Origin: Octopus vulgaris
Lineage: Eukaryota
Length of the DNA: 64,000 nucleotides
Reading direction: 5' to 3'
Assembly (NCBI GenBank): GCA_951406725.2
Contig: OX597830.1
Coordinates: 77,376,001-77,440,000 of the forward strand
The position numbers and the translations under genes were made by a program. Of this stretch, positions 5,302 through 62,514 are shown one piece after another (position 1 is the first letter of the stretch; each line of letters starts with the position of its first letter). Below the pieces are notes generated by a model. That model was given only the letters and a program-made list of their open reading frames with translations, did not search any database and was not told the origin of the DNA.

Positions 5302-6222
5302 TACGAGGGACGTTCAATAAGTAATGCCTCTGACCCACTTGCAGTTGTTGGATCTAGCTGAAATTTGTGGAAACTCTGTGGAAACAGTTCCCAAATCTGG
5401 TCGCCCCTTCTGCCATTGATGAGGCATCTGTCCGTCAAGTTGAGACTGCCATTTTGGAAGATCGACGCATAATTATTCGCCAAATAGCCCATGAGGTCAA
5501 GATTAGTACGGGTCTATGGAAACCATCATTCATGACCATTTGCATATGCAAAAGGTGTCTGCCAGATGGATTCCCAGGTTGCTCACGCCTTTCCAGAAGC
5601 AAGAACGCGTCGAGTGCTCGAGGGTGAATTTGGAGATGTGCCAAGAAGATGAGTCAAAATTTTTCAAAAGACTGATTACACAGGATGAAACCTGGGTCCA
5701 TCACGATGATCCAGAGACCAAAGCCCAGTCAATGCAGTGGAAGCACCGTGACTCACCCCCTCCAAAGAAGGCAAGGGTGCAGCCCTCCGCTGGCAAGGTC
5801 ATGCTCACAGTCTTCTGGGACCAGGACGGAGTAGTGATGACAGATTTCCTGGCAAAGGGTACCACAATTGCAGGAGCCTATTATGCTTCACTTTTGAGGA
5901 AATTAAGAGAAGTTATCAAAATCAAGAGGCGGGGCAAGATCAGCAAAGGCATCCTCCTCCTGCAGGACAACGCTCCGGTCCACAACTCGCTTGTCGCCAG
6001 ATCAGAAGCACAGGCGTATGGCTATGAACTCCCCCCATCCCCCTACTTTCCTGACCTTGCACCCTCTGATTTTCACCTCTTCCCAGCCATGAAGTTGTTT
6101 TTGAAAGGAAAGCGTTTCCCAGATGATGCAGCCTTGATTTCTGAAGTCACGTTCAGGTTGGAGGACCAAGCTGGGGTCTTCTACAAAAACGGTCTCCAGA
6201 GCTGCATCAAACAATGGGAGAA
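5302..6222 (+). mobile_element. Mariner (D,D34D-type) transposon, internally deleted and 3'-truncated
   Basis: TA + CGAGGGACGTTCAATAAGTAATG left TIR; transposase motifs WIPRLL, DETW, QDNA, YFPDLAPSDF; ends at QWEK in a TA run, right TIR absent. Confidence 0.92.
5367..6222 (+). pseudogene. Mariner transposase pseudogene
   Basis: HTH-like segment (ILEDRRIIIRQIAHEVKIS) in one frame, frameshift near 5515 into the catalytic domain ORF starting at 5516; N-terminus missing. Confidence 0.88.
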
Positions 6223-6451
6223 ATATATATATATATGTTTTATATGGTCAGGCGATTTGGCGTCTATTTTTTTCGCATATTGGCAAAGAAAATATTTTCT
6301 TTTGCCCTTATTTATAATTGTATATATATATATATATTTATAACTTTACACACACACACATACACATACACACACGCACTTATATATATATATAGATATA
6401 TGTATGCACAGATGTGTGTATATATATTTATTTAGTTCGTTTATACTTTTA

Positions 6452-6670
6452 GTTCTTACAGACATCTGACTGTGGCCATGCTGGAGCACTGCCTTTAGCC
6501 GAGCAAATCCACCCCAGGACATATTCTTTGTGAGCTTAGTACTTAGTCTATCGCGTTCTTTTCCCGAACCGCTAAGTTACGGGGACATAAACACACCAGC
6601 ATCTGTTGTCAAGCAATGTTGGGGGACAAACACAAACACAAACATATACACACGTACATACATACATACA
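6452..6670 (-). mobile_element. SINE type A 3' half
   Basis: Reverse complement of the type A tail (GGCCATGCTGGAGCAC...GAACCGCTAAGTTACGGGGAC). Confidence 0.8.
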
Positions 6671-7790: not shown

Positions 7791-8188
7791 CAGGTGTGGC
7801 TGTGTGGTAAGTAGCTTGCTAACCAACCACATGGTTCCGGGTTCAGTCCCACTGCGTGGCATCTTGGGCAAGTGTCTTCTGCTATAGCCCCGGGCCGACC
7901 AATGCCTTGTCAGTGGATTTGGTAGACGGAAACTGAAAGAAGCCTGTCGTATATATGTGTATATATATATATATGTATGTGTGTGTTTGTGTGTCTGTGT
8001 TTGTCCCCCTAGCATTGCTTGACAACCGATGCTGGTGTGTTTACGTTCCCGTCACTTAGCGGTTCGGCAAAAAGAGACCGATAGAATAAGTACTGGGCTT
8101 ACAAAGAATAAGTCCTGGGGTCGATTTGCTCGACTAAAGGCGGTGCTCCAGCATGGCCGCAGTCAAATGACTGAAACAAGTAAAAGAG

Positions 8189-8190
<2 letters not shown>
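7791..8190 (+). mobile_element. SINE type A
   Basis: Full copy matching 1372 and 35391. Confidence 0.9.
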
Positions 8191-8261
<71 letters not shown>

Positions 8262-8630
8262 ATACGTTTATATACCCACACGAACATGGAAACGGTGTAC
8301 GGCCATCTTCCGCTATATTCTAATATTTACTACAAACAATACATGAATGAATATAATTTATTTAAAGCACTTTGAACCTACATCCATGAAAGTCAGATAT
8401 TTGAAAACACAACAAAGACAGTACCATCACCACCACCACCATCACTACCACCACCACGAACTAGAGAAACAACAAGAAAACCAATAATGTATGTAACTCC
8501 TTTGTAGATTAAATTTGCTTCATGCAGAGTCACTGTAGGAAACATTTTCATTTAATTCTTACAAATATCTGAAAAATAAATATTACCAATAAATGTAAAC
8601 ATATATAAAGACATTCCTTGGAATATATAA

Positions 8631-11403: not shown

Positions 11404-11462
<59 letters not shown>

Positions 11463-11517
11463 TAGAAATATTAAATTTACTAAGTCTCTCTAAAGGAGAT
11501 TACGGCAGCGTTACTGG

Positions 11518-11776
11518 ATATTAATAGTTATCGCCATACTAATATGGCCTAGTCAGACTACGCTGCATTGATAAAGGGCAACAACCCTGAAACATGTCTG
11601 CAGATGTCTGACTAGCAAGGTGAAGCGGCTGACCTCCCCTGTTCGAAGGTTGTAATGGACGCAGGTTTGTGTGTCATATAGCTAGCTAGAGGCGATGGCC
11701 TCTTGGAGCTAATCAGCGACAGCTTTAGTCTTATATTTATAGACTGCCATATTAGTATGGCGATAACTATTAATAT
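11518..11776 (+). mobile_element. Retrozyme/PLE pseudo-LTR-like mini element with 31-bp perfect inverted ends
   Basis: ATATTAATAGTTATCGCCATACTAATATGGC at 11518-11548 and its reverse complement at 11746-11776; internal hammerhead; in (TA)n context. Confidence 0.75.
11549..11615 (+). ncRNA. Type I hammerhead ribozyme, U3-A8 variant
   Basis: ctagtcagac..ctgca-TTGATAA-aggg caacaa ccct-GAA-AC at GT-C-tgcag..gtctgactag; predicted cleavage after C11598. Confidence 0.85.
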
Positions 11777-12112
11777 ATATATATATATATCACTATGTAT
11801 TCAAACAAACTTATGCATGAGATGCGTTTAAATATAGATTACTGCTTGTCAAATTGTACTCGTAAATTTTTAGTCGATCCATATGTTAGCAGAAGGCAAT
11901 TGTTTGAGGTGACACGCAGTAAAATTGAACCCTAAATCACGAAATTGTGAAGCGTCACCTTGACCGCACATTTACACCTGGAAATGCACATATAGACACA
12001 CACTAACACACAAACACGCACACACACACTCGTAATCACATATCTAAACGCACATACCTTTATATTTGTATATGCACATCTATATACATGTAAGCATATA
12101 TATCCCCCCCCC

Positions 12113-13359: not shown

Positions 13360-13440
13360 TAATTAGTCCAGTACACTAATTATTTATGTTAAGTTTAAAG
13401 TTCAAACTCAGCTGGTATTGATTTTGTTAATAATTCCTCT

Positions 13441-13865
13441 AGGTGCAGGAGTGGCTGTGTGGTAAGTAGCTTACTTACCAACCACATGGTTCCGAGTTCA
13501 GTCCCACTGCATGGCACCTTGGACAAGTGTCTTCTACTATAGCCTCGGGTTGACCAAAGCCTTGTGAGTGGATTTGGTAGACGGAAACTGTAAGAAGCCC
13601 GCCGTATATATGTATATATATATGTTTGTGTGTCTGCGTGTGTGTTTGTATGTCTGTGTTTGTCCTCCCAACATCGCTTGACAAACGATGCTGGTGTGTT
13701 TGTGTCCCCGTAACTTAGCGGTTCGGATAAAGAGACCAATAGAATAAGTACTAGGCTTACAATGAATAAGTCCTGGGGTCGATTTGCTCGACTAAAGGTG
13801 GTGCTCCAACATGGCCGCAGTTAAATGACTGAAACAAGTAAAAGAGTAAAAAAAGAGTAAGAGTA
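13441..13865 (+). mobile_element. SINE type A
   Basis: Full copy matching the family. Confidence 0.9.
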
Positions 13866-13907
13866 CTGTCAAAAAAAAATGAATAAGATGATTAAATTTA
13901 GAAGCTA

Positions 13908-17597: not shown

Positions 17598-18272
17598 GTT
17601 ACTGCAGAGTCTATGCAGACAGAGCAATTGGGTGTATGGGATGGAGAGCTTGATGTGGGTAGGATGGGGGGAGCAGAAGTTGAGGTATGACTTTGAGTCG
17701 GTGTGTTTGTAGTGCGTGGAGGTAGTGAGAGCTGAGTTGTGTATGTTGACCGACTTGTCGAGAAGGGCAATGGAAGTGTTGGAAATGGTGCAGGAAAATT
17801 CGAGGGCAGGATGGACGGATTAGACAAAAGAGAGGAAGGAGTTTAGTTGTTGGCGGGATAGCGAGGTCGTGCCGATACAGTCATCAATATAACGACCGTA
17901 TAGTTCGGAAGTGGGGACCTTGAAAATATTGAGAATCTTGAAAATATTTGGGCCTCAACGTAGTCAACGAACAGGCTTGCATAGTTGGGGTTCATTCTCA
18001 TTCTCATGACCACTCCCGAGATCTATTGGTAAAACTCCCCCGCGAATGAGAAGCAATTGAGGTAGAGGACAAGTTCGACCAGATGAAGAAGTGTGGACAT
18101 GTCAGGTTGTGGGTTGATTTTGAAGATGTATGAAGTATTTGAGGACAAGAAATCCTTCGTTATGTGGGACTTTTGATATCAAGAGTAAAGAGAAGTTTAG
18201 AGGGACCAGGAGGGAATGAGAAAGAGTTGAAAAGACGAAGAGCAGGGTTAGTATCGTGGATGTGTGAGGGAT
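17598..18272 (-). pseudogene. Penelope-like element reverse transcriptase relic
   Basis: Manual minus-strand translation: DTNPAL..LLFTLDIKS, LVELVLYLNCFSFAGEFYQ*ISGVVM..PNYASLFVDYVE, YGRYIDDCIG, HPALEF, YKHTDSKSYLNFCSPHP..IPYTQL; has stops and frameshifts. Confidence 0.85.
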
Positions 18273-25156: not shown

Positions 25157-25354
25157 GGAAAAACAGGGAATTCCAAAGGAAACGAAAAAAGATGAAGGCA
25201 GGAAAATTGCCAGCAGACCACGTACGGCTATATATCTTTGACTTGAAGGGTTTTAGTCGAAGAATTCGAACCCAGGTTTTATTTTTTAAGCCTGGTATTT
25301 TTCTATCAGTCTCTTTTGCCGATGTATATATGTATATATATATATAGAGAGAGA

Positions 25355-25651
25355 GACGCAATGGCCCAGTGGTTAGGGCAGCGGACTCGCGGTCGTAGGA
25401 TCGCGGTTTCGATTCCCAGACCGGGCGTTGTGAGTGTTTATTGAGCGAAAACACCTAAAAGCTTCACGAGGCTCCGGCAGGGGGTGGTGATCCCTGCTGT
25501 ACTCTTTCACCACTCTTTCTTCCACTCTTTCTTCTATTGGCCTGCTCGCTTAGCCAGCGGGGTGGCGTCATTCGAAGGCTAAAACGATGCGAACGCATTG
25601 TGACCAGCAATGTGTAACAACATCTGATGGTCTGGTCGGTCTCGTGACGTG

Positions 25652-25653
<2 letters not shown>
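25355..25653 (+). mobile_element. SINE type B (tRNA-Arg-like head)
   Basis: A box TGGCCCAGTGG, B box GTTTCGATTCC; matches 60902. Confidence 0.9.
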
Positions 25654-25685
<32 letters not shown>

Positions 25686-25686
<1 letters not shown>

Positions 25687-26331
25687 TTAATAAAAAGAAT
25701 TCCAACCTTGTCTGATTTTCACGTTTTATTTACAATCTTATAATGATATATTATAAGATAATATATTATAATTGAATAAAATAAAATGAAATAGTAGAAT
25801 GTTAAATATTCATTCTGATTGAACTAGTACTTTCATGCATTGAATTCTGCAATCTTCGGGTTCATGTAGTAGTGTTGACAGTCATGCTTCACAATTTTTG
25901 ACTGTAGCAAGATGAGTGATTCTGTGCTATAAATACAGCTGGGTAGGCTCCAGAGTGCTAGGTTTTGCAAACTGTATTCTGACCAATCAGTGTGTAGTAT
26001 CACTCAATTACTTAAGCTGATTGGTTGGTTGAGCTGATTGGTTTAGGCATCACGCTTTGTTGGACAGGTCAAGAGTCCTGTATCTTGACCCTGGCCGAAG
26101 CAGCAATTGTTGGGTTATTTTTAGAAATGTTGTAAATATCCTTTGTCAGAGATTTTTATATTTTTATATTTCAATTGTCATCATCATCATTGTCAGCACC
26201 TTAATTATTGTTGCTAGTGGTGATGGTGGTGGCAATAGAACTTTTAACCCTAAATAAGATAATTTTCCTGCTATCTTCGTCTTGATCACCTTTAGTATTG
26301 TTGTTGTTGTTAGTGGTCATGGTCGTAGCAG
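25686..26331 (-). repeat. 3' pseudo-LTR (left arm of inverted repeat)
   Basis: Reverse complement of 28912-29557; one difference noticed (ASGD vs ASCD in the duplicated ORF-track entries). Confidence 0.95.
25820..25864 (-). ncRNA. Minimal type I hammerhead in pLTR (U4C variant)
   Basis: tgaac-CCGAAGA-t tgca gaattcaa tgca t-GAA-AG ta CT-A-gttca. Confidence 0.75.
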
Positions 26332-26358
26332 TGGAAGTAATACCTCTAAGTATTATTA

Positions 26359-28686
26359 TTATTGCTCATTTAGCTTGGGTTCGAATTTATCAATAAAATT
26401 CTTTTCTCTGATTTTCCTCTCGATTTCACTTGGGCTGTGTAATTTGTAGAATGGAAATATTATATATATTTTCCGACCACATGTTGCTAGGTGGTTACTC
26501 AAAGGTATCTGACGGACCTCTGGGTCTCTAATCTGTTGCCGGTGTACACGTGAGCGTTCTAATAGTGCGTTTCCCGTCTGACCTACATATATTTCTTCAC
26601 AATTTGGGCATTTGATGCAGTAAATTAAATTTCTGCTTTTGCAGTTCATATTCGCGTTTGTGAATATTTTCCCGGTTTTTGTGTTTATATATTGACCGGT
26701 ATGTATGAATTGGCATGTGCCACATCGGCTATCATTGCATTTAGATACCGTGAATGTTTGGTCTTTGTTGCTGAGGTCAAATTTTGCCTTTGTTAGTAAT
26801 GTTTTCAAGTTTTTAGGCTGTCTTTTACTAAGCACCATAGCTCGATCCTTGATTATGTCTTTTAATTCATTACTTTGGGCAATGATTGGAAGGTTTGCTT
26901 TGGCAATGTTGAAGATATTCTGGTGACATGGGTTGTGTGTCACTATGAATGGTATTACTTGTTCTTGTTTTCCTCTTCCTTGGGTTGTCCTAAGTTGTTG
27001 TATAGGTATTTTTATAGCCCGCTGTATGCCATTTTCTATAAGTAGAGATGGGTATTTTTGTTTGAGCAAAAATTCTCTTAGTTCTACTAGGCGTTTGTTC
27101 CTGATATTTGCATCTTCTACAATAGTACAAATTCTTCTGGCTAGGCAGTATGGGATGTTACGTTTTGTATGTGGTGGATGGCACGACTTAAAATTTAGGT
27201 ATTGATGTGTGTCTGTGTGTTTATAGTATATATCTGTGGTGATGGTGGTGTCTTTTTTAATTACCATTATATCCAGGAATGGTAATTTGGTACTACTCAT
27301 CTCCTTTGTAAATTTGAGAGATGGGTGTAGGTTGTTCAGGAGGATATTGAACTCTTCCAGAGTATTTAGAGATTCTGTCCAGATTATGAAACAGTCGTCT
27401 AGGTATCTCTTCCATGCCTTTTCAATATACTTTCTAAATCCAGTGCCATAGTTTACCTCTACCTCTTGGTAGAGTTGTTCTTCTAAGTATCCCATTACAG
27501 AGTTGGCGTAAACGGGAGCAAACCTCGTTCCCATCGCCGTGCCTCTAATTTGGATGTAATTCTTTCCATTGAAGAAGAATGTGTTATTTTCTAGAATAAG
27601 TTTGACTGTGTCTAATATAAATGGCACTGTGAATCTGCTGGGAATCACTTCTCTATGTTTTTCTAACCAGTATTTAATCGCCTTTATTCCTAAATCGTGT
27701 GGAATATTGGTGTAGAGGCTTACCACATCAAAACTTAGTAAAACTGAATTTGTTTCTGTTGTTTTGGGAAGATGGGACAGGAAGTCGATGTCATCCCTGA
27801 TGAAACTTGGTATGTAAGTACATAGTGGTTTCAAAACAATGTCAATAAAATTGCTTAGACGGTGTGTAGGGCATGCTGGACCAGCTATAATAGGTCTAAG
27901 TTTTAGGTCTTTTGGATGTAATAATTTTATGTACTCACTTTCTTGTTCTTTTACTGCCTGTTGAATGTTTTTTGATTTGTGTATTTTTGGTAAGCCGTAG
28001 AAGTTGCTGGGTTTTGGTTCAAAATTGGTGATGTAGTCTTTTTCATTATCCGTAAGTGAGTTGTGGTGTGTTGAAATCAGGTTGTTGATCTTTTTCATGA
28101 TGTGGTGGTCTATATTTGCGGGTATTTCACAATAGAAGGTTGTATCCTTCAGTTGGTCTTCAACCAAATCCTTATAGTATTCGGTATCCATAATAACAAT
28201 TGCACCACCTTTATCTGCTTGTTTAATTATTATTGTTTGATCGTTTTGTATACGTTTACATGCAGACATCTCTGATTTGCTAATGTTTGGCCTAACATTG
28301 GTATTGCGTCTAAGGGGAAATTTAGACAGGATATCAATGTATTGGTCAAGGTAGTTATTTCTTCCTTTTGGTGGGGTGAAATTTGATTTATTCCTTACTA
28401 GGGATTCATCAATCTCATTACTTTTGTTAGCGAAGAATTCTACAAGTCGTAATTTTCGACAGAATTTTTGGATATCCTCCTTTAATTCTTGGTGGTTGGC
28501 TGTTGGTGTAGGTGTGAATTTCAGTCCTTTTGACAGAAGTTGGATTTCATCATTGTCAAGATCTCTTTTTGATAAATTAATTATTTTAGGATCTATACGT
28601 TCAGTTGTTTGGGGTATGTTTCCTCTTGGATTTTTTCTTTCTCCGGTGTTTGTTGTCCTGACGTAAAAAAATGGATTTTTTTCTGG
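26359..28686 (-). CDS. PLE polyprotein: reverse transcriptase + GIY-YIG endonuclease
   Basis: ADKGG, FYGLPKIHK, LRPII, SFDVVSLYTNIP, GTAMGT, RYLDD, FLD, CNDSRCGTC linker, LIYCIKCPNC..YVGQTG; frame stays open upstream of Met 28269 (IINLS..LLSKGLKFTPTP) to ~28686. Confidence 0.95.
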   Translation of the reverse strand, partial: PEKNPFFYVRTTNTGERKNPRGNIPQTTERIDPKIINLSKRDLDNDEIQLLSKGLKFTPTPTANHQELKEDIQKFCRKLRLVEFFANKSNEIDESLVRNKSNFTPPKGRNNYLDQYIDILSKFPLRRNTNVRPNISKSEMSACKRIQNDQTIIIKQADKGGAIVIMDTEYYKDLVEDQLKDTTFYCEIPANIDHHIMKKINNLISTHHNSLTDNEKDYITNFEPKPSNFYGLPKIHKSKNIQQAVKEQESEYIKLLHPKDLKLRPIIAGPACPTHRLSNFIDIVLKPLCTYIPSFIRDDIDFLSHLPKTTETNSVLLSFDVVSLYTNIPHDLGIKAIKYWLEKHREVIPSRFTVPFILDTVKLILENNTFFFNGKNYIQIRGTAMGTRFAPVYANSVMGYLEEQLYQEVEVNYGTGFRKYIEKAWKRYLDDCFIIWTESLNTLEEFNILLNNLHPSLKFTKEMSSTKLPFLDIMVIKKDTTITTDIYYKHTDTHQYLNFKSCHPPHTKRNIPYCLARRICTIVEDANIRNKRLVELREFLLKQKYPSLLIENGIQRAIKIPIQQLRTTQGRGKQEQVIPFIVTHNPCHQNIFNIAKANLPIIAQSNELKDIIKDRAMVLSKRQPKNLKTLLTKAKFDLSNKDQTFTVSKCNDSRCGTCQFIHTGQYINTKTGKIFTNANMNCKSRNLIYCIKCPNCEEIYVGQTGNALLERSRVHRQQIRDPEVRQIPLSNHLATCGRKIYIIFPFYKLHSPSEIERKIREKNFIDKFEPKLNEQ

Positions 28687-29199
28687 TTATGATTTATATT
28701 CCTGTTGATGTTTGCTTGATGAATTTTGCGTTTTGGTTGTGGTACTTTACTTGGTTTCGTTATGTTTTCTGTCTTGTTTTTGGTCTTGTTTTTGGTATTA
28801 TGTATGCTACTTTTCAATTTCTTGTTAGCATTGTTTTTAACCACCTGGAGAAATGATCTGGGTTTACTTCTAGATCTAGATCGGTTTTTTGTCCAGTTTC
28901 TTGTGGGTAATCTGCTACGACCATGACCACTAACAACAACAACAATACTAAAGGTGATCAAGACGAAGATAGCAGGAAAATTATCTTATTTAGGGTTAAA
29001 AGTTCTATTGCCACCACCATCACAACTAGCAACAATAATTAAGGTGCTGACAATGATGATGATGACAATTGAAATATAAAAATATAAAAATCTCTGACAA
29101 AGGATATTTACAACATTTCTAAAAATAACCCAACAATTGCTGCTTCGGCCAGGGTCAAGATACAGGACTCTTGACCTGTCCAACAAAGCGTGATGCCTA

Positions 29200-29316
29200 A
29201 ACCAATCAGCTCAACCAACCAATCAGCTTAAGTAATTGAGTGATACTACACACTGATTGGTCAGAATACAGTTTGCAAAACCTAGCACTCTGGAGCCTAC
29301 CCAGCTGTATTTATAG
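29200..29316 (+). promoter_or_regulatory. Putative Pol II promoter in pLTR (three CCAAT boxes + TATA-like)
   Basis: AACCAATCAG twice, CTGATTGG, then TATTTATAG ~70 nt upstream of the hammerhead; mirrored at ~25927-26043. Confidence 0.45.
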
Positions 29317-29378
29317 CACAGAATCACTCATCTTGCTACAGTCAAAAATTGTGAAGCATGACTGTCAACACTACTACA

Positions 29379-29423
29379 TGAACCCGAAGATTGCAGAATT
29401 CAATGCATGAAAGTACTAGTTCA
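29379..29423 (+). ncRNA. Minimal type I hammerhead in pLTR (U4C variant)
   Basis: Identical to 25820-25864; palindromic stem III AGTACT. Confidence 0.75.
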
Positions 29424-29585
29424 ATCAGAATGAATATTTAACATTCTACTATTTCATTTTATTTTATTCAATTATAATATATTATCTTATAATATATCAT
29501 TATAAGATTGTAAATAAAACGTGAAAATCAGACAAGGTTGGAATTCTTTTTATTAATATATTCTTCTATACACAATCACACCCAC

Positions 29586-29662
<77 letters not shown>

Positions 29663-29689
29663 CATATGTATGTGTGAGCATGTGTTTGT

Positions 29690-29895
29690 GTGTTTGTCCT
29701 CTCAACATCGCTTGACAACCGATGCTGGTGTGTTCACATCCCCGTAATTTAGCGGTTCGGTAAAAGAGACCGATAGTATAAGTGCTAGGCTTACAAAAAC
29801 ATCCTGGGATCGATTGCTCCACTAAAGGCCGTGCTCCGGCATGGCTGCAGTTAAATGACTAAAAGAAGCAAAACAATAAAAGAATAAAAGAATAC
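29690..29895 (+). mobile_element. SINE type A 3' half
   Basis: Matches family tail. Confidence 0.8.
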
Positions 29896-29926
29896 ATATG
29901 TGTGTGTGTGTGCGTTTGTGTGTCTG

Positions 29927-29964
<38 letters not shown>

Positions 29965-30017
29965 TGTCTGTGTGAATTTTTTTGCTTGTGCGCATGTGTG
30001 TATATACATGTATGTAG

Positions 30018-32653: not shown

Positions 32654-32890
32654 AAGGCGGCGAGCTGGCAGAAACGTTAGCGCGCCGGGCGAAATGCTTA
32701 GCGGTATTTCGTCTGCCGTTACGTTCCGAGTTCAAATTCCGCCGAGGCCGACTTTGCCTTTCATCCTTTCGGGGTCGATAAATTAAGTACCAGTTACGCA
32801 ATGGGGTCGATGTAATCGACTTAATCCCTTTGTCTGTCCTTGTTTGTCCCCTCTGTGTTTAGCCCCTTGTGGGTAGTAAAGAAATAGATA
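32654..32890 (+). mobile_element. SINE type D (tRNA head + Deu/Nin-like domain)
   Basis: GGCGGCGAGCTGGCAGAA..GAGTTCAAATTCC head; GCCTTTCATCCTTTCGGGGTCGATAAATTAAGTACCAG resembles the Deu/Nin SINE domain. Confidence 0.85.
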
Positions 32891-33569
32891 TTGCGATTTC
32901 TCCTGTGAGCAGTGTATGTTGTACTTCCCTCCCTTGCCGATATGTACTGTTGAAGTATATAGAAGCACAATGCAAGTAATTCGTTATAGAGTATACCTCG
33001 TAATATAGAATATGATAAGCAGTGATGGATATCCATATCGACGTCACAAAATTTAAACAGTAACGAAATAGCATAACTGCAATGGCAGTCAACACGATGA
33101 TGATCCATGGTTTTCTTTTCCAGTAATAGAATCAAAAAATGTTATCGTAAATAAAAGCTGAGAACCAAATTTATGAAGAGAACTAATAGTTATATGGTGC
33201 ACGTGATTTTGTGTTCCCAAGATATATTGCATTAATGAAACAACAACCTCTTGCTTTCTCTCTCTCTTACTTACTCTCTCCCTCTCTCTCTCACTTACTC
33301 TCTCTCTCTCTATATATATATATATATTCGTATATATATATATATATATATACATACATATACATGCATATATGTATGTGTATGTGTGTGCATGTGTGTG
33401 TATATATGTGAGTATATATGCGTGGGTGTATGCATGTAAATAAGTATATCTATCTATTTATCTCTCTCTCTTTTTCTCACACACACACTCTCTCTATATA
33501 TATATAATATAATATAATATTATATAATATAATATAATATAATATATTATAATATATAGTATATAATAT

Positions 33570-35148: not shown

Positions 35149-35390
35149 ATCAGTCATATCTTCCAGCATATCAAATATTTATCTAAATTATCATTAATCC
35201 GCACAGAGATAGGATGTTAATTCATATGTGTTTATGTTTGTGTCTACATATATAAATATAAATGTTCACAAGGGTTGATAGTGGCTTCGAAGTGACGGCT
35301 TTCTTTCAATTTATTAGAGGTTTTAAGACGGGACTTTGAATTCAAAGTCGATTTTTTTCTCCTGGCAAATATTTAATAAATGTACTCTGT

Positions 35391-35556
35391 AGGCGCAGGT
35401 GTGGCTGTGTGGTAAGTAGCTTGCTTTACAACCACATGGTTCCGGGTTCAGTCCCACTGCGTGGCATCTTGGGCAAGTGTCTTCTGCTATAGCCCCGGGC
35501 CGACCAATGCCTTGTGAGTGGACTTGGTAGATGGAAACTGAAAGAAGCCTGTCGTA

Positions 35557-35636
<80 letters not shown>

Positions 35637-35864
35637 AGTGTGTTTGTGTGTCTGTGTGTGTCCCCCTAGCGTTGCTTGACAACCGATGCTGGTGTGTTTA
35701 CGTACCCGTCAATTAGCGGTTCGGCAAAAGAGACCGATAGTAGAAGTACTAGGCTTACAAAGAATAAGTCCTGGGGGTCGATTTTCTCGACTAAAGGCGG
35801 TGCTCCAGCATGGCCGCAGTCAAATGACTGAAACAAGTAAAAGAGTGAAAAAGAGTAAAGAGTA
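35391..35864 (+). mobile_element. SINE type A with expanded internal (TA)n
   Basis: Full copy. Confidence 0.9.
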
Positions 35865-36671
35865 TATAATATATAATAAACGTTTTCTACGTAATTTGAA
35901 ATAAACGTACTCGGCTCTAAGCTTACAAGGCCGAATCGTTAGCAAACCGGGCAAAAGGTTTATTGGCTTTTCGTCTGTCTTTTCGTCTGTTTTGAGTTCA
36001 AATTCCTCTGAATTCTTCGACTTGTCTGTCATCCTTTCGGACTCGATAAAATAAGTATCAATTGATTGGTGGGCTCGATATAATGGACATTCACCCTCCC
36101 ACGCAATCTCTGACTTTGTGCTAAAATTGGAAACCAATATACTTTAAAGCTTACTTTAACTTTTTTAACATCTCGGAATATCGAGACGATACAAAAGCCA
36201 GTCTCACGATGTATTATCATTAACGGGATCCTTTTGGTATACAACTATTAAACTCGACCACATATTGCTACGTATATTAACTTCGATATTTTGCCATGCT
36301 TTCAACGTTCTTTTACTCGTCCTTGCCTGCTTCTCTTCCCGTTCTACGGCCCAGCGCTACCCTTGTATCTCCTCTACGTTTTCTTTTAAAGGCGATTTTA
36401 ATTGGGCGATCTATCATTATTGATCACTGTTCAAGTTCAAATTAAAGTCAATCGTTTTAATTGTGACTGCTACAGATTACAAAAATGCATACAAGCATAC
36501 ACATACTCACGTGTTTATATATATACATACATACACACACACACATATATATGTATATATATATATGTATATATATATATTTATATTTATATATATATAT
36601 GTATATATATGCATATATATATATATATATAAATATATAAACATATATATATATATATATATAAATATATA

Positions 36672-37934: not shown

Positions 37935-38187
37935 TTTTTAGTTTCAGCTCAGAGCTGCGGCCATGCTGATTCACCGCCGTTAACATATATACACACATAT
38001 ATATATATTTATACATTATATACGACGTGCCTCTTTCAGTTTCCGTCTACCAAATCCACTCACAAGGCTTTGGTCGGCCCGAGGCTATAGTAGAAGACAC
38101 TTGCCCAAGGTACCACGCAGTGGGACTGAACCCAGAACCATGTGGTTGGTAAGCAAGCTACTTACCACACAACCACTCCTGCGCCTT
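37935..38187 (-). mobile_element. SINE type A, internally shortened
   Basis: Reverse complement of family head and tail end. Confidence 0.8.
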
Positions 38188-38398
38188 AAGGATTGTTACA
38201 AAACTAACATCACAACTTTTATTTATTTATTTATTTATATATTCATTTATTTACTTTTTTTATATATTCTTGCAAAGCAAATTAAAATGCAAACTTCTTG
38301 GAACGACAAACAGACAGAGGACCTCTGGAGTACTGATGAGAATATAACGCATATCTACTACAACGAAATTCCACCATTTCCGTTGTTACGTAGACTGG

Positions 38399-38715: not shown

Positions 38716-39145
38716 CCGTAGTTACCTAACTCGTTGCGAATGCTTTGGAAAAATGTAATACAGACGTAAGTCTTAGCGATTTTTAATGTAACCAAGCAGC
38801 TGCTTTCTCGGTTGAAAAACAAAAGAAAAAAAACTGTCTATGTCTAGACTTTGGCGTCTTTATTTCGTCATACTGAAGTATGACATCGTGAATACACTTG
38901 AGACGAAAAGACAGTGTCACATCTTGAAATGGTGAAGAAACACGATGCATAAAGGTAGTCACATCGGAGGGTGACTCGACAATCAGCGAATATATATGTG
39001 TGTGTGGAAGCTAGCTTACCAACTACATCCGTCCGGGTTCAGTCCCACTGCGTGGCACCTTGGGTAAGTGTCTTCTACTAGAGAGCCTCGGGCCGGCCAC
39101 AGATTTGTGAGTGGATTTACGTGTCGGAAACTGAAAGAAGCCCGT

Positions 39146-39183
<38 letters not shown>

Positions 39184-39266
39184 AATTTGTCCCGCTGCAC
39201 ATCTCGACAACCAGTGTTGGAGCGTGCAGTCCTCGTTACTTAGCGGTTCATCAAAAAGCGATTCAC

Positions 39267-39730: not shown

Positions 39731-40144
39731 CTTATTTCTTTACTACCCATAAGGGGCTAAACACAGAGAGGACAAACAAAGACAGACGGATTATGTCGAT
39801 TATATCGACCCCAGTGCGTAACTGGTACTTATTTAATCGACCCCGAAAGGATGAAAGGCAAAGTCGACCTCGGCGGAATTTGAACTCAGAACGTAGCGGC
39901 AGGCGAAATACCTATTTCTTTATTACCCACAAGGGACTAAACACAGAGGGAACAAACAAGGACAGACATAGGTATTAAGTCGATTACATCGACTCCAGTT
40001 CGTAACTGGTACTTAATTTATCGACCCCGAAAGGATGAAAGGCAAAGTCGACCTCGGCGGAATTTGAACTCACAACGTAACGCAGGCGAAATACCGCTAA
40101 GCATTTCGCCCGACGTGCTAACGTTTCTGCCAGCTCGCCGCCTT
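39731..40144 (-). mobile_element. Tandem SINE type D array
   Basis: Full copy 39912-40144 plus headless repeat 39731-39911; further fragment 39620-39725. Confidence 0.85.
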
Positions 40145-40576: not shown

Positions 40577-40905
40577 AATAATAATGATAATAATAATAAT
40601 AATAATAATAATTATGGTTTCAAAGTTTAACACGAGGCCAGGAATTTTGTGGGAGGGGTGTTAGTCGATTACGTTGACTCCAGGGTTCAGCTGGTACTTA
40701 ATCTATCGACCTCCGAAAGGATGAAAGTCAAAGTCGACCTCGGCGGAATTTGAACACAGAAAGTGCCGACAGACGAAATACTGCTGAGCATTTTGTCCGG
40801 CATTCTAACGATAACAACAACAACTTCAACAACTACTACTAGTACAATAATAATAATGATATTTGGAGTCAATTTGTACAAATACGAAGCTAAAATCAAA
40901 CATAC

Positions 40906-46407: not shown

Positions 46408-46625
46408 AAGGTAGCGAGCTGGCAGAATCTTTAGCACGCCGGGCAAAATGAATAGCCGCATTTCGTCTGTCTTCACGTCTGAGTTCAAATTCCGCCGACG
46501 TCGACTTTGTCTTTCATCCTTGCGAGATCTTGAAATAAGTACCAGTTACGAACTGAGGTCGGTTACGTTGACTAGGCCCCTCCTCCGCCAAAAAAATTCA
46601 AGGCCTTGTGCCTCTATTAAAAAGG
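46408..46625 (+). mobile_element. SINE type D variant
   Basis: Head and Deu-like domain as at 32654, different tail. Confidence 0.7.
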
Positions 46626-46717
46626 ATTATTCTTATTACTGTGAAATAAGATTTATTAAATGCAGTTCCACATCTGTCCAGACATCTTCTCCACCCACTA
46701 CTCCTCAGAGGAATCTT

Positions 46718-46950
46718 ATTTCTTTACTACCCAAAAGGGGCTAAACATAGAGGAGACAAACAAGGACAGACAAAGGGATTAAGTCGATTATATCGATCCC
46801 AGTGCGTAACTGGTACTTATTTAATCGACCCCGAATGGATGACAGGCAAAGTCGACCTCGGCGGAATTTGAACTCAGAACGTAACTGCAGACGAAATACG
46901 GCTACGCATTTCGGCCGGCGTGCTAACGTTTCTGCCAGCTCACCGCCTTC
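46718..46950 (-). mobile_element. SINE type D with TSD
   Basis: Reverse complement of 32654; AGAGGAATCTT duplicated at 46707-46717 and 46954-46964. Confidence 0.9.
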
Positions 46951-48850: not shown

Positions 48851-50248
48851 TCTGACATGCATGTTGTCAGCTGTAACCTCCGGTTTCAGAAGAAGAGCAA
48901 CAGGAATTTCTAAATATTCTGTGAACGGACAAAATCAAAATGAGAGAAATTATGTAACCTGAGAAGTGGACACAGACAGGACAAGGAGTCCTAAGAGTCA
49001 AGTTACACAGACATACTATTATAAAAACGCATTCACAAAAACAAAAGCGCATTGAAACATATATACATTTTTCATTTCTTTCTCTGAAACATGTATGGGT
49101 CTTCTCCACGCTTATTTTCAATTTACTCCAATAATGTATCGAATGCGTCTTCTCTTTCTCGTTAATTTTCAATTTACTCTCGGCCTGTCCCACAAACCGC
49201 CAATCCTATCCTTTCTCTCTCATTTACTCTCTGTCAGTATCTGTCTGTCTGTCTGTTTTTCTCTCTCCTCCTCCTCTCTCTCTCTCTCCTTTCTCTTTCC
49301 TCCTCTCTCTCCTCCCCTCTCTCCTCTCTCCTCCTCTCTTTCTCCACCTCTCTCCTCCTCTTTCCCCCTCCTCTCTCCTCCCTATCTCCTCTCTCCTCCC
49401 TATCTCCTCTCTCTCTCCTCCTCTCTCTCTCCACCTCTCTCCACCTCTCTCCTCCTCTTTCTCTCCTCATCTCTCCTCCCTCTCTCCTCTCTCTCTCCTC
49501 CCCTCTCTCCTCCTCTCTCTCTCCTCTTCTCTCCTTCCTCCTCTCTCTCCTCCTCCTCTCTGTCTCCTCTCTTTCTCCACCACTCTCCCTTCCTCTCTCT
49601 CTCTTCCTCTCTCTCCCTCTCTCTTCTCTCTTCTCTCTGGTCTTTTATCTACACGCATACATACCCGAGCCAGATTTGATGACTTGTGGATATATTCGAA
49701 ATTATTAAATTACATGAGGAACGTAGTAAGGAGCGGATACGTATATTTTAGAGTAAAATATATGAATTTTAATTTAATTTACTAGTAAATATTTGCAGCT
49801 ATTCCTTTCATTTCAATTTGGACGTGGCAGCGTGATTGAGAAGCTTGCTTCTGGAGCATGTGGTCTTGCGTACAGCCCCATTGCGCGGTACCTTGCACAA
49901 GTGTGTACAACTATTCGTGGGCCAACTAGAGACGAGCGAGCGAATTTCGTAAGCAGAAACTAGAAAGAAGTGCGTTCTTTCTCAACCACATGGTCCAGGA
50001 TTGAGTCCCATTGCGTGGCACCTTTGGCAAATGTTTCTACTATAACCTCGGGCCAACTAAAGCCTTGTGAGTGGATTTGGTAGACGGAAACTGAAATATG
50101 TACACTGTTGTGTACATATATATATATAAATACTCTTAAAATTAATAAAGTATTATTGCTTTTATTTAAAATAACACTAGTAATAAAATGGCCAGCAAGT
50201 TTACCTTGACAGGTAAAATATACAAATAGATTAGGGTACCGAAATACC

Positions 50249-53684: not shown

Positions 53685-54069
53685 GTGGAGGCGCAATGGC
53701 CCAGTGGTTAGGGCAGCGGAATCACGGTCATGGGATCGCGGTTTCGATTCCCAGACCGGGCGTTGTGAGTGTTTATTGAGCGAAAACACCGAAAGCTCCA
53801 CCAGGTCCGGCAGGGGGTGGCGGCGAACCCTGCTGTACTTTTTCACCACAAACCTTCTCTCACTCTTTCTTCTTGTTTCTGTTGTACCTGTATTTCAAAG
53901 GGCCAGCTTTGTCGCACACTGTTTCACGCTGAATCTCCCCGAGATCTACGTAAGGGTTCACGTGTCTGCGGAGTGCTCAGCCACTTACACGTTAATTTCA
54001 TGAGCTGGGTGTTCCCTTTATCGGATCAACTGGGACCCTCGTTATCGTAACCGACGGAGTGCCACGACG
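53685..54069 (+). mobile_element. Hybrid SINE (type-B head + type-C tail) with 12-bp TSD
   Basis: ATAAGAAGCATC at 53673-53684 and 54070-54081 brackets the whole hybrid. Confidence 0.9.
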
Positions 54070-54356: not shown

Positions 54357-54886
<530 letters not shown>

Positions 54887-55087
54887 TTATGTATACATAT
54901 ACATACACATACACACATATAAATATACATATATATTTCTTTTCACAACAAGCTATAATAGAAGACGCCCAAGGTACCACGCAGTGGGCCTCAACAAGCA
55001 ACCATGCGGTTGGGAAACACACTTCATACCTTGCTATACCTGCATCTATATACATATGTTTGTATGTGTGTGTGTGTATGTGCATCT

Positions 55088-55369: not shown

Positions 55370-56735
55370 AAAAAATTGATATCACTGCTGTTCATAATGT
55401 CTCTCTCAGGCATGATCTTAGCTATACAAGCAAAGGGCATGTTTGTGAGAGCATGCACAATCTATGCACATAACGCAAAAATAGTATAATTATAAAGAAC
55501 ACTGCATATGCAACACACCTGCTGCCTGATTAAATGCTATATAAGTGGCTTGAAAAAAATATTCAATTTAATGCAATGTAAATCTGAAAGATTCTATGCT
55601 CTTTTCTGTCAGCACACGATGTTGAAAACAAAATACAATATACACAAAATACTTTGCATCGGTAGATGACCAAAGCTCTAACATGAGAAGTGATGCATCT
55701 TTTCGTGTTCGTATTACGAAGACAGCAATTAAATTTTAACGGTTAGCCATATATATTCGAAGCACTTTCAAAACCGTACGGTTTTCTGGAAAACATTTGT
55801 CCAAAACTGCCTAGATTACTGCTTCGATTTAATGACAGAACTTGAAGCAATCAAACGCAGCTACACAAAAGAGTTGGCCCCCCCAACGCAACAGATCAGC
55901 TCTTGGGTAACGCTGGAAAAGTCTAGACTCTCTCCTTTACACCAATGGTTCTCATCTGGGGTCCATCTGGCCCTTCGGGTTCCACGTAAAATGCTTTTGA
56001 AAAAAATTCATGTACAATAAATTGGTTATAAATTGTGAGTGGATTTGGTAGACGAAAATTGAAATATGCGTGAATGTGTGAGTGTATGTGTGTGGATTTG
56101 TGCGTTTGTGTGTATGTGTCTTTGTTTCTGGTTTGTTATCTCATCAACGCTTGACAATCGGTGTTGCTGTGTTTACGGCCCCGTAAATCAGCCGTTCTAC
56201 ATAAGATATCGATAGAATAAGTACTTGGATTCAAAAATAACTCCTGGGGTTGAATTGCTCGACTAAAACTCTTCAAGGCGGTGCACCCAGCATGACCTCA
56301 GTCAAATAAAGGAAACAAGTAAAAGAATAAAAGGATAAAAGAAGCGAATGGCTAGGAGGGACCATCCGAGTAAAACAGGAATCAAAGGTAAGAAATGGTT
56401 GAGAACTCCTGAGTTAGAACAAAAACAAGAAAGATATGTTGTATTACATGCATGTAAGGTCATAGAAAGACTTACACCGAAATTTAGCATTGAATACTAT
56501 GCTAATCTTCGAAGAGGGCGCCACTGCATTGTGCCAATGATGTCATTGTTGCGATTGAGATTTCGAACTAGATACTAAAATAACTTAGGGTTCGAATGCT
56601 TGCAGCTTTTGAGTAATCTGCTGAAGCACTTAAGAGAACTTGTAGTGAAGGTATAGGGATATAGATGTCTTCAAAAAGCAAACTGGACATTCTACTATCT
56701 AGAATTCTTGATGAGCTGACTTCGCGACAAGGAAC
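55370..56735 (+). pseudogene. Degraded CR1-like LINE RT/3' end, interrupted by a hAT-like MITE end and a SINE fragment (~55945-56340)
   Basis: Fragments LLFIMSLS, TIYAHNAK (YADD region), [40 protein letters not shown] collinear with the ORF at 62959. Confidence 0.65.
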
Positions 56736-60849: not shown

Positions 60850-60901
<52 letters not shown>

Positions 60902-60902
<1 letters not shown>

Positions 60903-61192
60903 GCGCAATGGCCCGTGGTTAGGGCGGCGGACTCGCGGTCGTAGGATCGCGGTTTCGATTCCCAGACCGGGCGTTGTGAGTGTTTATTGAGCGAAAACAC
61001 CTAAAAGCGCCACGAGGCTCCCGACAGGGGGTGGTGATCCCTGCTGTACTCTTTCACTCACTCTTTCGTTTGTTGGCCTGCTTGCTTAGCCAGTGGTGTG
61101 GCGTCATTCGAAGGCTAAAACAATGCGAACGCATTGTGACCAGCGATGTGTAGCAACATCTGATGGTCTGGTCGGTCATGTGATCACGTGAT
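60902..61192 (+). mobile_element. SINE type B
   Basis: Matches 25355. Confidence 0.9.
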
Positions 61193-62133
61193 ATATATAT
61201 ATATACACACGCACACAAACACACCCGTGTGTCTATAGATGTATAGCATATATGAAAATATATATACTTACATCATATATATTTACATGCATGCGGATAG
61301 ATAGATAGATAGATAGATAGATAAAATAAATGAACGGGTCGAGAAGTGTAATGTGAAAGTAGAGAGAGACGGTGAAATATGAGGCGGCGTTTCAGCTGAG
61401 TGATGGCGGCTTGATTGGACACGAAAATGAGATAATTCTGAGCGCTTAGCGATGCAAACACTGCGTATACCACACCACATTTCTGTCCGTATCGATACAC
61501 CACCACTGACCATATTGGATGACGAACTACAAACTACACGCTACTAGTAACACCACAACCACTACTACCTTCGATAATGTAGTTATCAACTGACGTGAAG
61601 AGCCTGCATGTGGTTGCTCATTGGGGGAAAAATAGCAGTCAAATTTCACTTAAATCAGGCAAAGACAACATCGATCAATAGAGCTTGGATGCATACGAAA
61701 TGAAAGTGAGACGAAATGGTCACGGTTGGAATGCTTCTCCTCATAAGTCATCTCTGTCTGAGCTGGCCTGTGGTTATAGAATAACAATAGCGCAAGTATT
61801 ATTAACAGTACAAGGACGAGGGCGCAGTTAGGTAATCTACAAGATTAGGCCTACAAGAAATAGCAGCCAAACATCTCTCGAGCAACATCCTAATAGGTCA
61901 AAAGACGATCCGTGACGGCACCATTGCTTTTCATATACGTTTTCTTAATCAGAGCTGTGTGTGACTCAACAGAAACGCCACCAACTGCATCGTTGTTATG
62001 TGAATGTGCGCATGTATTTCTTCATCTCATACCCCCATCTTCTAGCCTTCAATAAGTCCTGGGTCGGATTTGTTCGACTAAAGACAGTGCTCCAGCATGG
62101 ACCAGTCAGATTACTGAAACAAATAAAAGAATA

Positions 62134-62514
62134 TCTTTATATATAAAAGTGTCTGTCTCCTACGACTTAGATTCCTAACTACTCCCACATTTTGCGGTGC
62201 AATGTAACCAAAAGCGGGTATCTTATAGTCGGGATTCATATCGAACCCTGGGTATTAGCGCGCGTCTACGATGAGTCTACGATTTAAAAAAAAATTTACC
62301 ATCATTTTTCCCATTTTTAATGCATTTTTTTGATATTATATAAGGGAAGTAACTCTCTAAAAATGTATAATTAAATCTCAGAACGTAAAAAGCTACAGTA
62401 ACACTCCCCTTTGTGGTTAGCCATATTGAGATGGCTATTATACTTTACATCTCTAAAAATCATTATATAGTTATTTCCCTTACAAACCCGAGCAACGCCG
62501 GGCAATACTGCTAG
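62134..62514 (+). mobile_element. Non-autonomous Helitron
   Basis: A^TC start, CCCGAGCAACGCCGGG hairpin, CTAG^T end; same family as 13908. Confidence 0.9.

Follow-up and report, generated by a model that had tools for sequence, protein, structure and literature searches.

A 5'-truncated copy of a high-copy U3-A8 hammerhead family, probably inserted by PLE-type machinery between AT-rich microsatellite tracts

The analysed stretch of DNA (64 kb, hereafter the window) is AT-rich, microsatellite-dense and animal-like. The element under study (the small element) sits between a (TA)n tract at 11406-11459 and an (AT)7 tract at 11777-11790, and a second copy of it was not found within the 64-kb window. 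The parts of the locus, and a larger element located further downstream, are as follows.

11406..11459, no strand: left (TA)n tract, the putative target that primed the short inverted cDNA; several PLE clades are (TA)n-biased
11460..11517, minus strand: 58-bp tail, the family sequence that follows the 31-bp segment, inverted here and ending at putative RT start site 2
11518..11548, minus strand: inverted copy of 11746-11776, probably the overlap of two cDNAs and not a terminal inverted repeat
11549..11558, plus strand: outer stem I, 5' arm, of which 11549-11555 are probably a short fold-back copy of 11609-11615 at the truncation point
11563..11603, plus strand: type I hammerhead with inner stem I, U3-A8 core, stem II and palindromic stem III, predicted cut after C11598
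11606..11615, plus strand: outer stem I, 3' arm, pair probabilities 0.95-1.0 in this copy
11616..11745, plus strand: body, from the hammerhead to the 3' end, with local hairpins, polymorphic among subfamilies
11746..11776, plus strand: conserved 31-bp segment (hairpin and AT-rich end), ending at putative RT start site 1
11777..11790, no strand: right (AT)7 tract, the putative target that primed the long cDNA; no target-site duplication readable
25684..29587, minus strand: autonomous-type PLE with RT and C-terminal GIY-YIG, inverted pLTR, tail and its own hammerhead variant, in (TA)n

Positions 11518-11548 are the exact reverse complement of 11746-11776, and the match extends in neither direction (blastn E 1e-10). 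A prior reading made from the letters of the window (the sequence-only reading) had stated that the 3' end is copied in inverted orientation on the 5' side, and this stands, at exactly 31 bp. The repeat is not terminal, because 58 family bases (11460-11517) lie outside it. The sense part and the tail strand are interrupted by stops in all three frames, and neither this copy nor the 30-base family flanks contained an ORF or a protein partner linked to the family.

The hammerhead was assigned to type I from its three-way junction, conserved core, 3-8 pair, A15.1-U16.1 and NUH site. The core at 11568-11574 reads U3-U4-G5-A6-U7-A8-A9, with U3 at 11568 and A8 at 11573; G12-A13-A14 lie at 11589-11591, A15.1-U16.1 at 11592/11597 and C17 at 11598, in a GUC site. 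Stem I consists of five inner (11563-67/11599-603) and ten outer (11549-58/11606-15) Watson-Crick pairs, stem II of 4 bp with a 6-nt loop and A10.1-U11.1 as first pair instead of the usual G-C (a detail absent from the sequence-only reading), and stem III of 2 bp within the palindromic hexamer 11592-11597. Of the structure proposed in the sequence-only reading, the change of both partners of the 3-8 pair was confirmed at 11568/11573 and proved compensatory and family-wide, the 4-bp stem II and the minimal palindromic stem III are both present, and so are the three downstream hairpins that it had named, in a region (11617-11745) that is no more folded than its shuffles (z = -0.76).

A strict descriptor matched the small-element hammerhead as its sole hit in the 64-kb window; among dinucleotide-shuffled windows a strict version matched 3/40, and a relaxed version averaged 0.375 matches per window. 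The fold of the 68-nt motif gave z = -4.73, with 0/200 shuffles equally stable. Stems I and II were formed with pair probabilities of 0.78-1.0 in every context containing the outer stem, and in the monomer fold the core bases were trapped with the cleavage-site strand at a probability of 0.38. Local scans with the Rfam hammerhead models gave no match at the small element up to E 10, and the Rfam scan of the whole window returned solely microsatellite-driven matches among the 150 of 319 that were listed. Canonical descriptors and Rfam both miss this hammerhead, as had been predicted for searches with a canonical core. A short palindromic stem III is reported to give a weak monomer and an active dimer (PMC4209133 and PMC7229834; these, like all papers cited here, are cited for the excerpts available). 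Since stem III is here a 2-bp palindrome, weak cleavage as a monomer and better cleavage as a dimer are predicted; by analogy, efficient cleavage most likely requires dimerisation via the palindromic stem III or the help of a protein, the monomer being only weakly active.

Parts of the stretch were contained in 20 of 24 listed sequencing runs, from 10 studies and with 4 coded organism labels, none recorded as RNA. Contigs of four runs (X1, X5, X4 and X15), all of them short, were aligned at a likeness of at least 80%, and variants were listed from a share of 3%, so that copies less than 80% alike, or a canonical-core subfamily below 3%, would be missed. The alignment left out 11760-11800, and the right end (start site 1) was thus read in this copy only. 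X1, the best-matching run, may be the source of the window and was not counted as independent; X5 and X4 come from other studies and carry other organism labels. X15 is RNA by guess only, and with a depth that follows that of the DNA runs it was not counted as evidence of expression. The family was represented by 4509 contigs in X1, 3574 in X5, 2408 in X4 and 256 in X15. A depth of about 2.7e5 over the ribozyme in X1, against about 50 per single-junction contig, suggests a family of hundreds to thousands of copies, summed contig depth not being a measured copy number. An exact 20-base search matched neither metagenome nor viral contigs.

In the family, 35 positions vary, and at a share of at least 3% none of them is 11568 or 11573 in any of the four runs, at depths (in the bins covering these two positions) of 173,058 and 308,655 in X5 and of 14,019 and 22,450 in X4. 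U3-A8 is therefore the state of the family and not a private decay of this copy, which was rejected as a candidate with X5 and X4 included. A CUGAUGA family consensus with two private transitions, the case that the sequence-only reading had named against itself, did not occur in the contigs of the four runs. Within the hammerhead (11563-11603), 2/41 positions vary: 11583, which lies in loop II (about half of the depth), and 11601, where a G-C pair turns into G-U. The body (11604-11745) varies at 25/142 positions (Fisher p = 0.03 against the ribozyme) and the stretch just downstream of the hammerhead at 9/18 (p = 1.5e-4 against the ribozyme), while the 31-bp segment varies at 0/30 (p = 0.005); these p-values are indicative only, because the windows were chosen after seeing the data, the sites are non-independent, and depth over the hammerhead is about one third of that over the body. 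The core is conserved family-wide and the variation is compatible with the structure, as in a hammerhead. Judged from these alignments, the hammerhead is under selection in the family, with its 3-8 tertiary pair kept as U-A.

The stem I of 5+10 bp described in the sequence-only reading holds in this copy, but its perfect 10-bp outer arm is partly private: at 11555 the family has T, in essentially the whole depth of X5, X4 and X15 and in 1862/1913 of that of X1, and the family letters 5' of 11552 differ from those of this copy. Compared by eye, the upstream loose end of the family is complementary to 11610-11622, giving a longer, imperfect stem I. In X5, a joint 11610-11570 was also seen, at which another copy folds back inside the hammerhead; the intervening letters read as an inverted stretch of stem I and core that likewise has U3-A8.

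The tail (11460-11517) is covered as deeply as the body (0.7-1.0 million, summed, in X1), and the family runs beyond 11462 in 42, 38 and 31 contigs of X1, X5 and X4, respectively. An opposite-strand joint 11548-11741 occurs in all four runs, which sets the family order as body, 31-bp segment and tail; in full, the order is upstream sequence, hammerhead, body, 31-bp segment, 58-bp tail and further sequence. The family continues past 11462 and upstream of 11552, with a length of at least about 340 nt, and no circle can be closed because its two loose ends of 30 bases, one upstream and one downstream, have no overlap. This copy holds hammerhead, body and 31 bp in sense and 31 bp and tail in antisense, each part ending on (TA)n. 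Body depth amounts to 1e4-1e6 in the three larger runs, against single-locus depth at the junction 11549 (51, 81, 19 and 0 in the four runs), and family depth drops towards the 5' side. A depth step near 11610-11625 was considered as a trace of cleavage and rejected, as it lies off the cut site and coincides with a polymorphic stretch. Beyond the tail, at the loose ends before 11462 and 11480, the family passes into another hairpin-like stretch, and a second variant of the tail seems to lead into an AT repeat, which suggests subfamilies with different second start sites.

Of the 15 joints listed (of 44), 11 connect the inverted part, at 11493-11547, with the sense part, at 11577-11663, each at about the depth of a single locus (9-131); 6 of the 11 were seen in at least two runs, 5 do not overlap the 31-bp segment, and the complete core is retained in none. 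The inverted-sense breakpoints differ from copy to copy, and the 31 bp are therefore an overlap particular to each insertion. An opposite-strand joint 11466-11589 (X1, X5) reads as a partial tandem of a tail and a truncated copy, and no high-depth head-to-tail joint, as from tandem monomers of 150-400 bp, occurs among the 15 of 44 joints listed.

The large PLE of the window carries an open frame of 775 codons (26359-28686, minus strand) with a CX4CxxC linker, an RT match of 27.9 bits, just under the Pfam cut-off of 29.6, and a GIY-YIG match of 24.9 bits, over the cut-off. Its inverted pLTR measures 650 bp, has arms 99.8% identical and is flanked by (TA)n; the tail is AC-rich and 28 bp long (29560-29587). 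Judged by its sequence the element is young, and the linker, the one character used, suggests the Neptune clade (PMC8557442, in excerpt). Each pLTR arm holds a hammerhead variant (core at 29384 on the plus and at 25859 on the minus strand), which Rfam also missed. In this variant position 4 is a C, stem II has a U-U at its base and stem III is palindromic; the core starts about 176 nt before the 3' end, versus 209 nt in the small element. The layout of (TA)n, inverted end and tail is common to both elements, so the sequence-only reading was right that the small one repeats the geometry of the large one. DNA similarity between the two was not significant (best E 1.8), and direct derivation from the large PLE was rejected. 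The last 9 bases of the 31-bp segment recur at the 3' end of the large PLE, which is only a hint, because this 9-mer precedes 3/230 starts of (AT)6+ runs in the window (1/3 background). The large PLE is, on this comparison, a different family and gives an example of machinery by which the small element could be mobilised. A search with the large PLE protein gave one metagenome contig (L001:10-1515) with a PLE frame, which has 46% identity to residues 274-773; only 84 bases follow the match, not enough for a pLTR to be seen. Another PLE-like RT fragment lies at 17601-17924 (minus strand), 38% identical to residues 417-521 of the same protein.

The window also holds a mariner-type transposase fragment at 5507-6343 (Pfam Transposase_1, E 9e-24), an interspersed repeat of 250-480 bp that contains a microsatellite, occurs in about a dozen copies and may resemble a cephalopod SINE, and two further interspersed repeat families with 71-95% identity among copies.

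1372-1783, 6309-6670, 7791-8274, 13422-13868, 29639-29965, 35387-35875: 250-480-bp repeat
37985-38203, 39009-39261, 49983-50132, 54430-54905, 56033-56342, 62051-62145: further copies of the 250-480-bp repeat
1-119, 25353-25666, 53688-53873, 60901-61205: first further repeat family
32654-32895, 35929-36088, 39733-40144, 40663-40810, 46408-46949: second further repeat family

PLE insertions are marked by an inverted, 5'-truncated copy, a 30-40-bp tail at one end and a microsatellite bias (PMC8557442). A PLE protein is described to cut and extend both strands at AT-rich DNA, with RT starting at two internal RNA sites, the tail being the stretch between them, and with mainly uncleaved RNA used, the hammerhead of that element cleaving only with the protein (PMC11167929). 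At the small element, a 5'-truncated sense copy is joined to an adjacent inverted copy at breakpoints that vary within the family, a tail is present at one end (58 bp, longer than the described 30-40 bp), and the target is an AT-rich microsatellite, as read in this copy only. Very probably, the locus is a 5'-truncated insertion of a high-copy, hammerhead-bearing family that was made by PLE RT/GIY-YIG machinery.

For such an insertion, the endonuclease would nick both strands of the (TA)n tract, and RT would start internally on the family RNA, at two sites separated by 58 nt (11776 and about 11460). The long cDNA (228 nt) would read through the hammerhead cut site, fold back for about 7 nt at stem I and then be joined to the second cDNA of 89 nt, the 31-bp inverted repeat being the overlap of the two. 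As the long cDNA crossed the cut site, its template would have been uncleaved or re-ligated. The two-start mechanism was shown for a Poseidon-clade element, and we infer that it applies to the small-element family. This lone truncated copy is probably inactive as a donor.

With the known insertions of Neptune, Poseidon, Naiad and Hydra PLEs, the small element shares the (TA)n target, the variable 5' truncation and the adjacent inverted copy, and further the tail at one end, the hammerhead near the 3' end and the partial tandems (PMC8557442, PMC11167929, both in excerpt); it differs from the PLE insertions described in the excerpts of PMC8557442 in having no ORF and in its tail of 58 bp versus 30-40 bp. 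It was provisionally filed as a PLE-type insertion on this comparison, with a retrozyme as a candidate parent only.

Two parents, a non-coding retrozyme-type repeat and the pLTR of an autonomous PLE, are about equally likely. The first, whose chances fall a little short of even, would be a non-coding non-LTR retrozyme of about 340-500 nt with tandem master arrays and circular RNA, its copies being pasted by PLE enzymes. The hammerhead has the canonical metazoan build, i.e. a short stem I, an internal loop and a long outer stem, with a 4-bp stem II and a palindromic stem III of 2 bp, and has no extra base after A9, as in tandem retrozymes (PMC4209133, PMC7229834); the complementary upstream end of the family would lengthen stem I, and every frame of the sense part and the tail strand has stops. 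Mussel retrozymes measure 350-390 bp at about 5,000 copies (PMC7229834). Metazoan non-LTR retrozymes (coral, mussel, axolotl) resemble the small element in their canonical-build type I motif with a short palindromic stem III (PMC7229834, bioRxiv 10.64898/2026.07.22.740005). They are likewise non-coding, high in copy number, compatible in size and dispersed as monomers, with PLEs in the same genome. In its build, the hammerhead resembles the canonical motifs found in tandem retrozymes more than it does the minimal motifs of PLEs. Against this parent stand the missing high-depth head-to-tail joint among the 15 of 44 listed and the loose ends that close no circle; pLTRs of autonomous PLEs are, moreover, also non-coding, some of them with a small palindromic stem III (PMC4209133).

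For the second parent, which has the same somewhat less than even chance, the locus would be the pLTR end of an ordinary autonomous PLE and one of thousands of its truncated copies. Most PLE hammerheads occur singly, in truncated copies, and in Schistosoma about 1,300 motifs of this sort in PLE-related sequence have U3-A8 (PMC4209133); the distance from core to 3' end in the large PLE and the 5'-ward fall in depth point the same way. The build, however, is unlike the PLE minimal consensus, in which stem II has 7-8 bp and starts with G10.1-C11.1 and an extra base follows A9, and an ORF-linked copy was not seen in the 30-base family flanks. The hammerheads of Schistosoma Cercyon PLEs share with the small element the U3-A8 pair, type I, a mostly single, dispersed occurrence and their being missed by canonical descriptors; those motifs are minimal, with a stem II of 7-8 bp (PMC4209133), whereas the hammerhead described here lacks the extra base after A9 and has a 4-bp stem II, A10.1-U11.1, a palindromic stem III of 2 bp and a long outer stem I.

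That the U3-A8 motif is a catalytically dead relic throughout the family, kept as a protein-binding structure or by recent amplification, is unlikely. Such a relic would fit the replacement of G-C by A10.1-U11.1 and the pairing of the core with the cleavage-site strand in the monomer; 8/9 predicted frog retrozyme elements remained uncleaved in vitro (bioRxiv 10.64898/2026.07.22.740005), and cleavage is dispensable for PLE insertion in vitro (PMC11167929). Yet none of the catalytic positions is lost, the 3-8 pair is retained, the hammerhead varies only in loop II and at one wobble, and covariants of the 3-8 pair are reported as active (PMC3088659).

The sequence-only reading had taken the locus for a discrete unit of about 230 nt, mobile in this form and bounded by fixed inverted ends of 31 bp. 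The two arms of the repeat match perfectly and the hammerhead begins at the inner edge, but the family passes both ends, the junction 11549 has single-locus depth, other copies break elsewhere, and the 5' edge is a truncation point, which leaves this account highly improbable. Tc1/mariner-type MITEs have TA flanks and an inverted repeat and are short and non-coding. A MITE or fold-back DNA transposon that targets TA and resembles a hammerhead only by chance would agree with the TA flanks, the inverted repeat, the lack of an ORF, the high copy number and the mariner-type transposase fragment in the window, but is scarcely credible with a repeat that is neither terminal nor fixed in length (0 to >31 bp among copies) and with conserved positions that are those of the ribozyme. 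Fixed terminal inverted repeats at both ends were not found, and the variable junctions exclude a MITE with fixed ends as well as a fixed 230-nt element; the TA-TSD MITE that the sequence-only reading had set against its own proposal is dismissed with them.

Covariation of U3/A8 in natural hammerheads has been described (PMC3088659), and further papers support the 3-8 pair and the dimer mechanism (PMC3884650, PMC6155905). The U3-A8 core is thus already published and less new than had been implied at the outset. A paper on the small-element family was not found in a search that ran without subscription journals and Repbase/Dfam, and the supplements of PMC4209133 and of the 2026 preprint may list such families. 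PLEs are regarded as strong candidate mobilisers of retrozymes (PMC7229834), a view backed by co-occurrence and pLTR similarity (bioRxiv 10.64898/2026.07.22.740005); the excerpts of these two sources do not describe a junction of inversion plus tail in retrozymes.

We put forward, as a tentative claim with chances clearly under even, that the locus belongs to a non-coding U3-A8 retrozyme family with a canonical-build hammerhead, whose dispersed copies carry the PLE fingerprint of two internal RT starts, a tail, priming of both strands at (TA)n and variable inversion junctions. If true, the copies would give direct structural evidence for the mobilisation of animal retrozymes in trans by PLE RT/endonuclease, for which the excerpts cited have so far argued from co-occurrence and pLTR similarity, and the invariant 31-bp hairpin segment would be a candidate recognition signal. 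Should the parent prove non-coding, the spread of retrozymes could be tested directly on thousands of junctions. The family adds to a known sort of hammerhead and indicates that canonical-core and Rfam searches undercount animal hammerheads, and it offers a natural predicted ribozyme with U3-A8 and A10.1-U11.1 for kinetics. The ends of the copy studied here illustrate the probable way in which Penelope-type enzymes insert such RNAs into genomic DNA.
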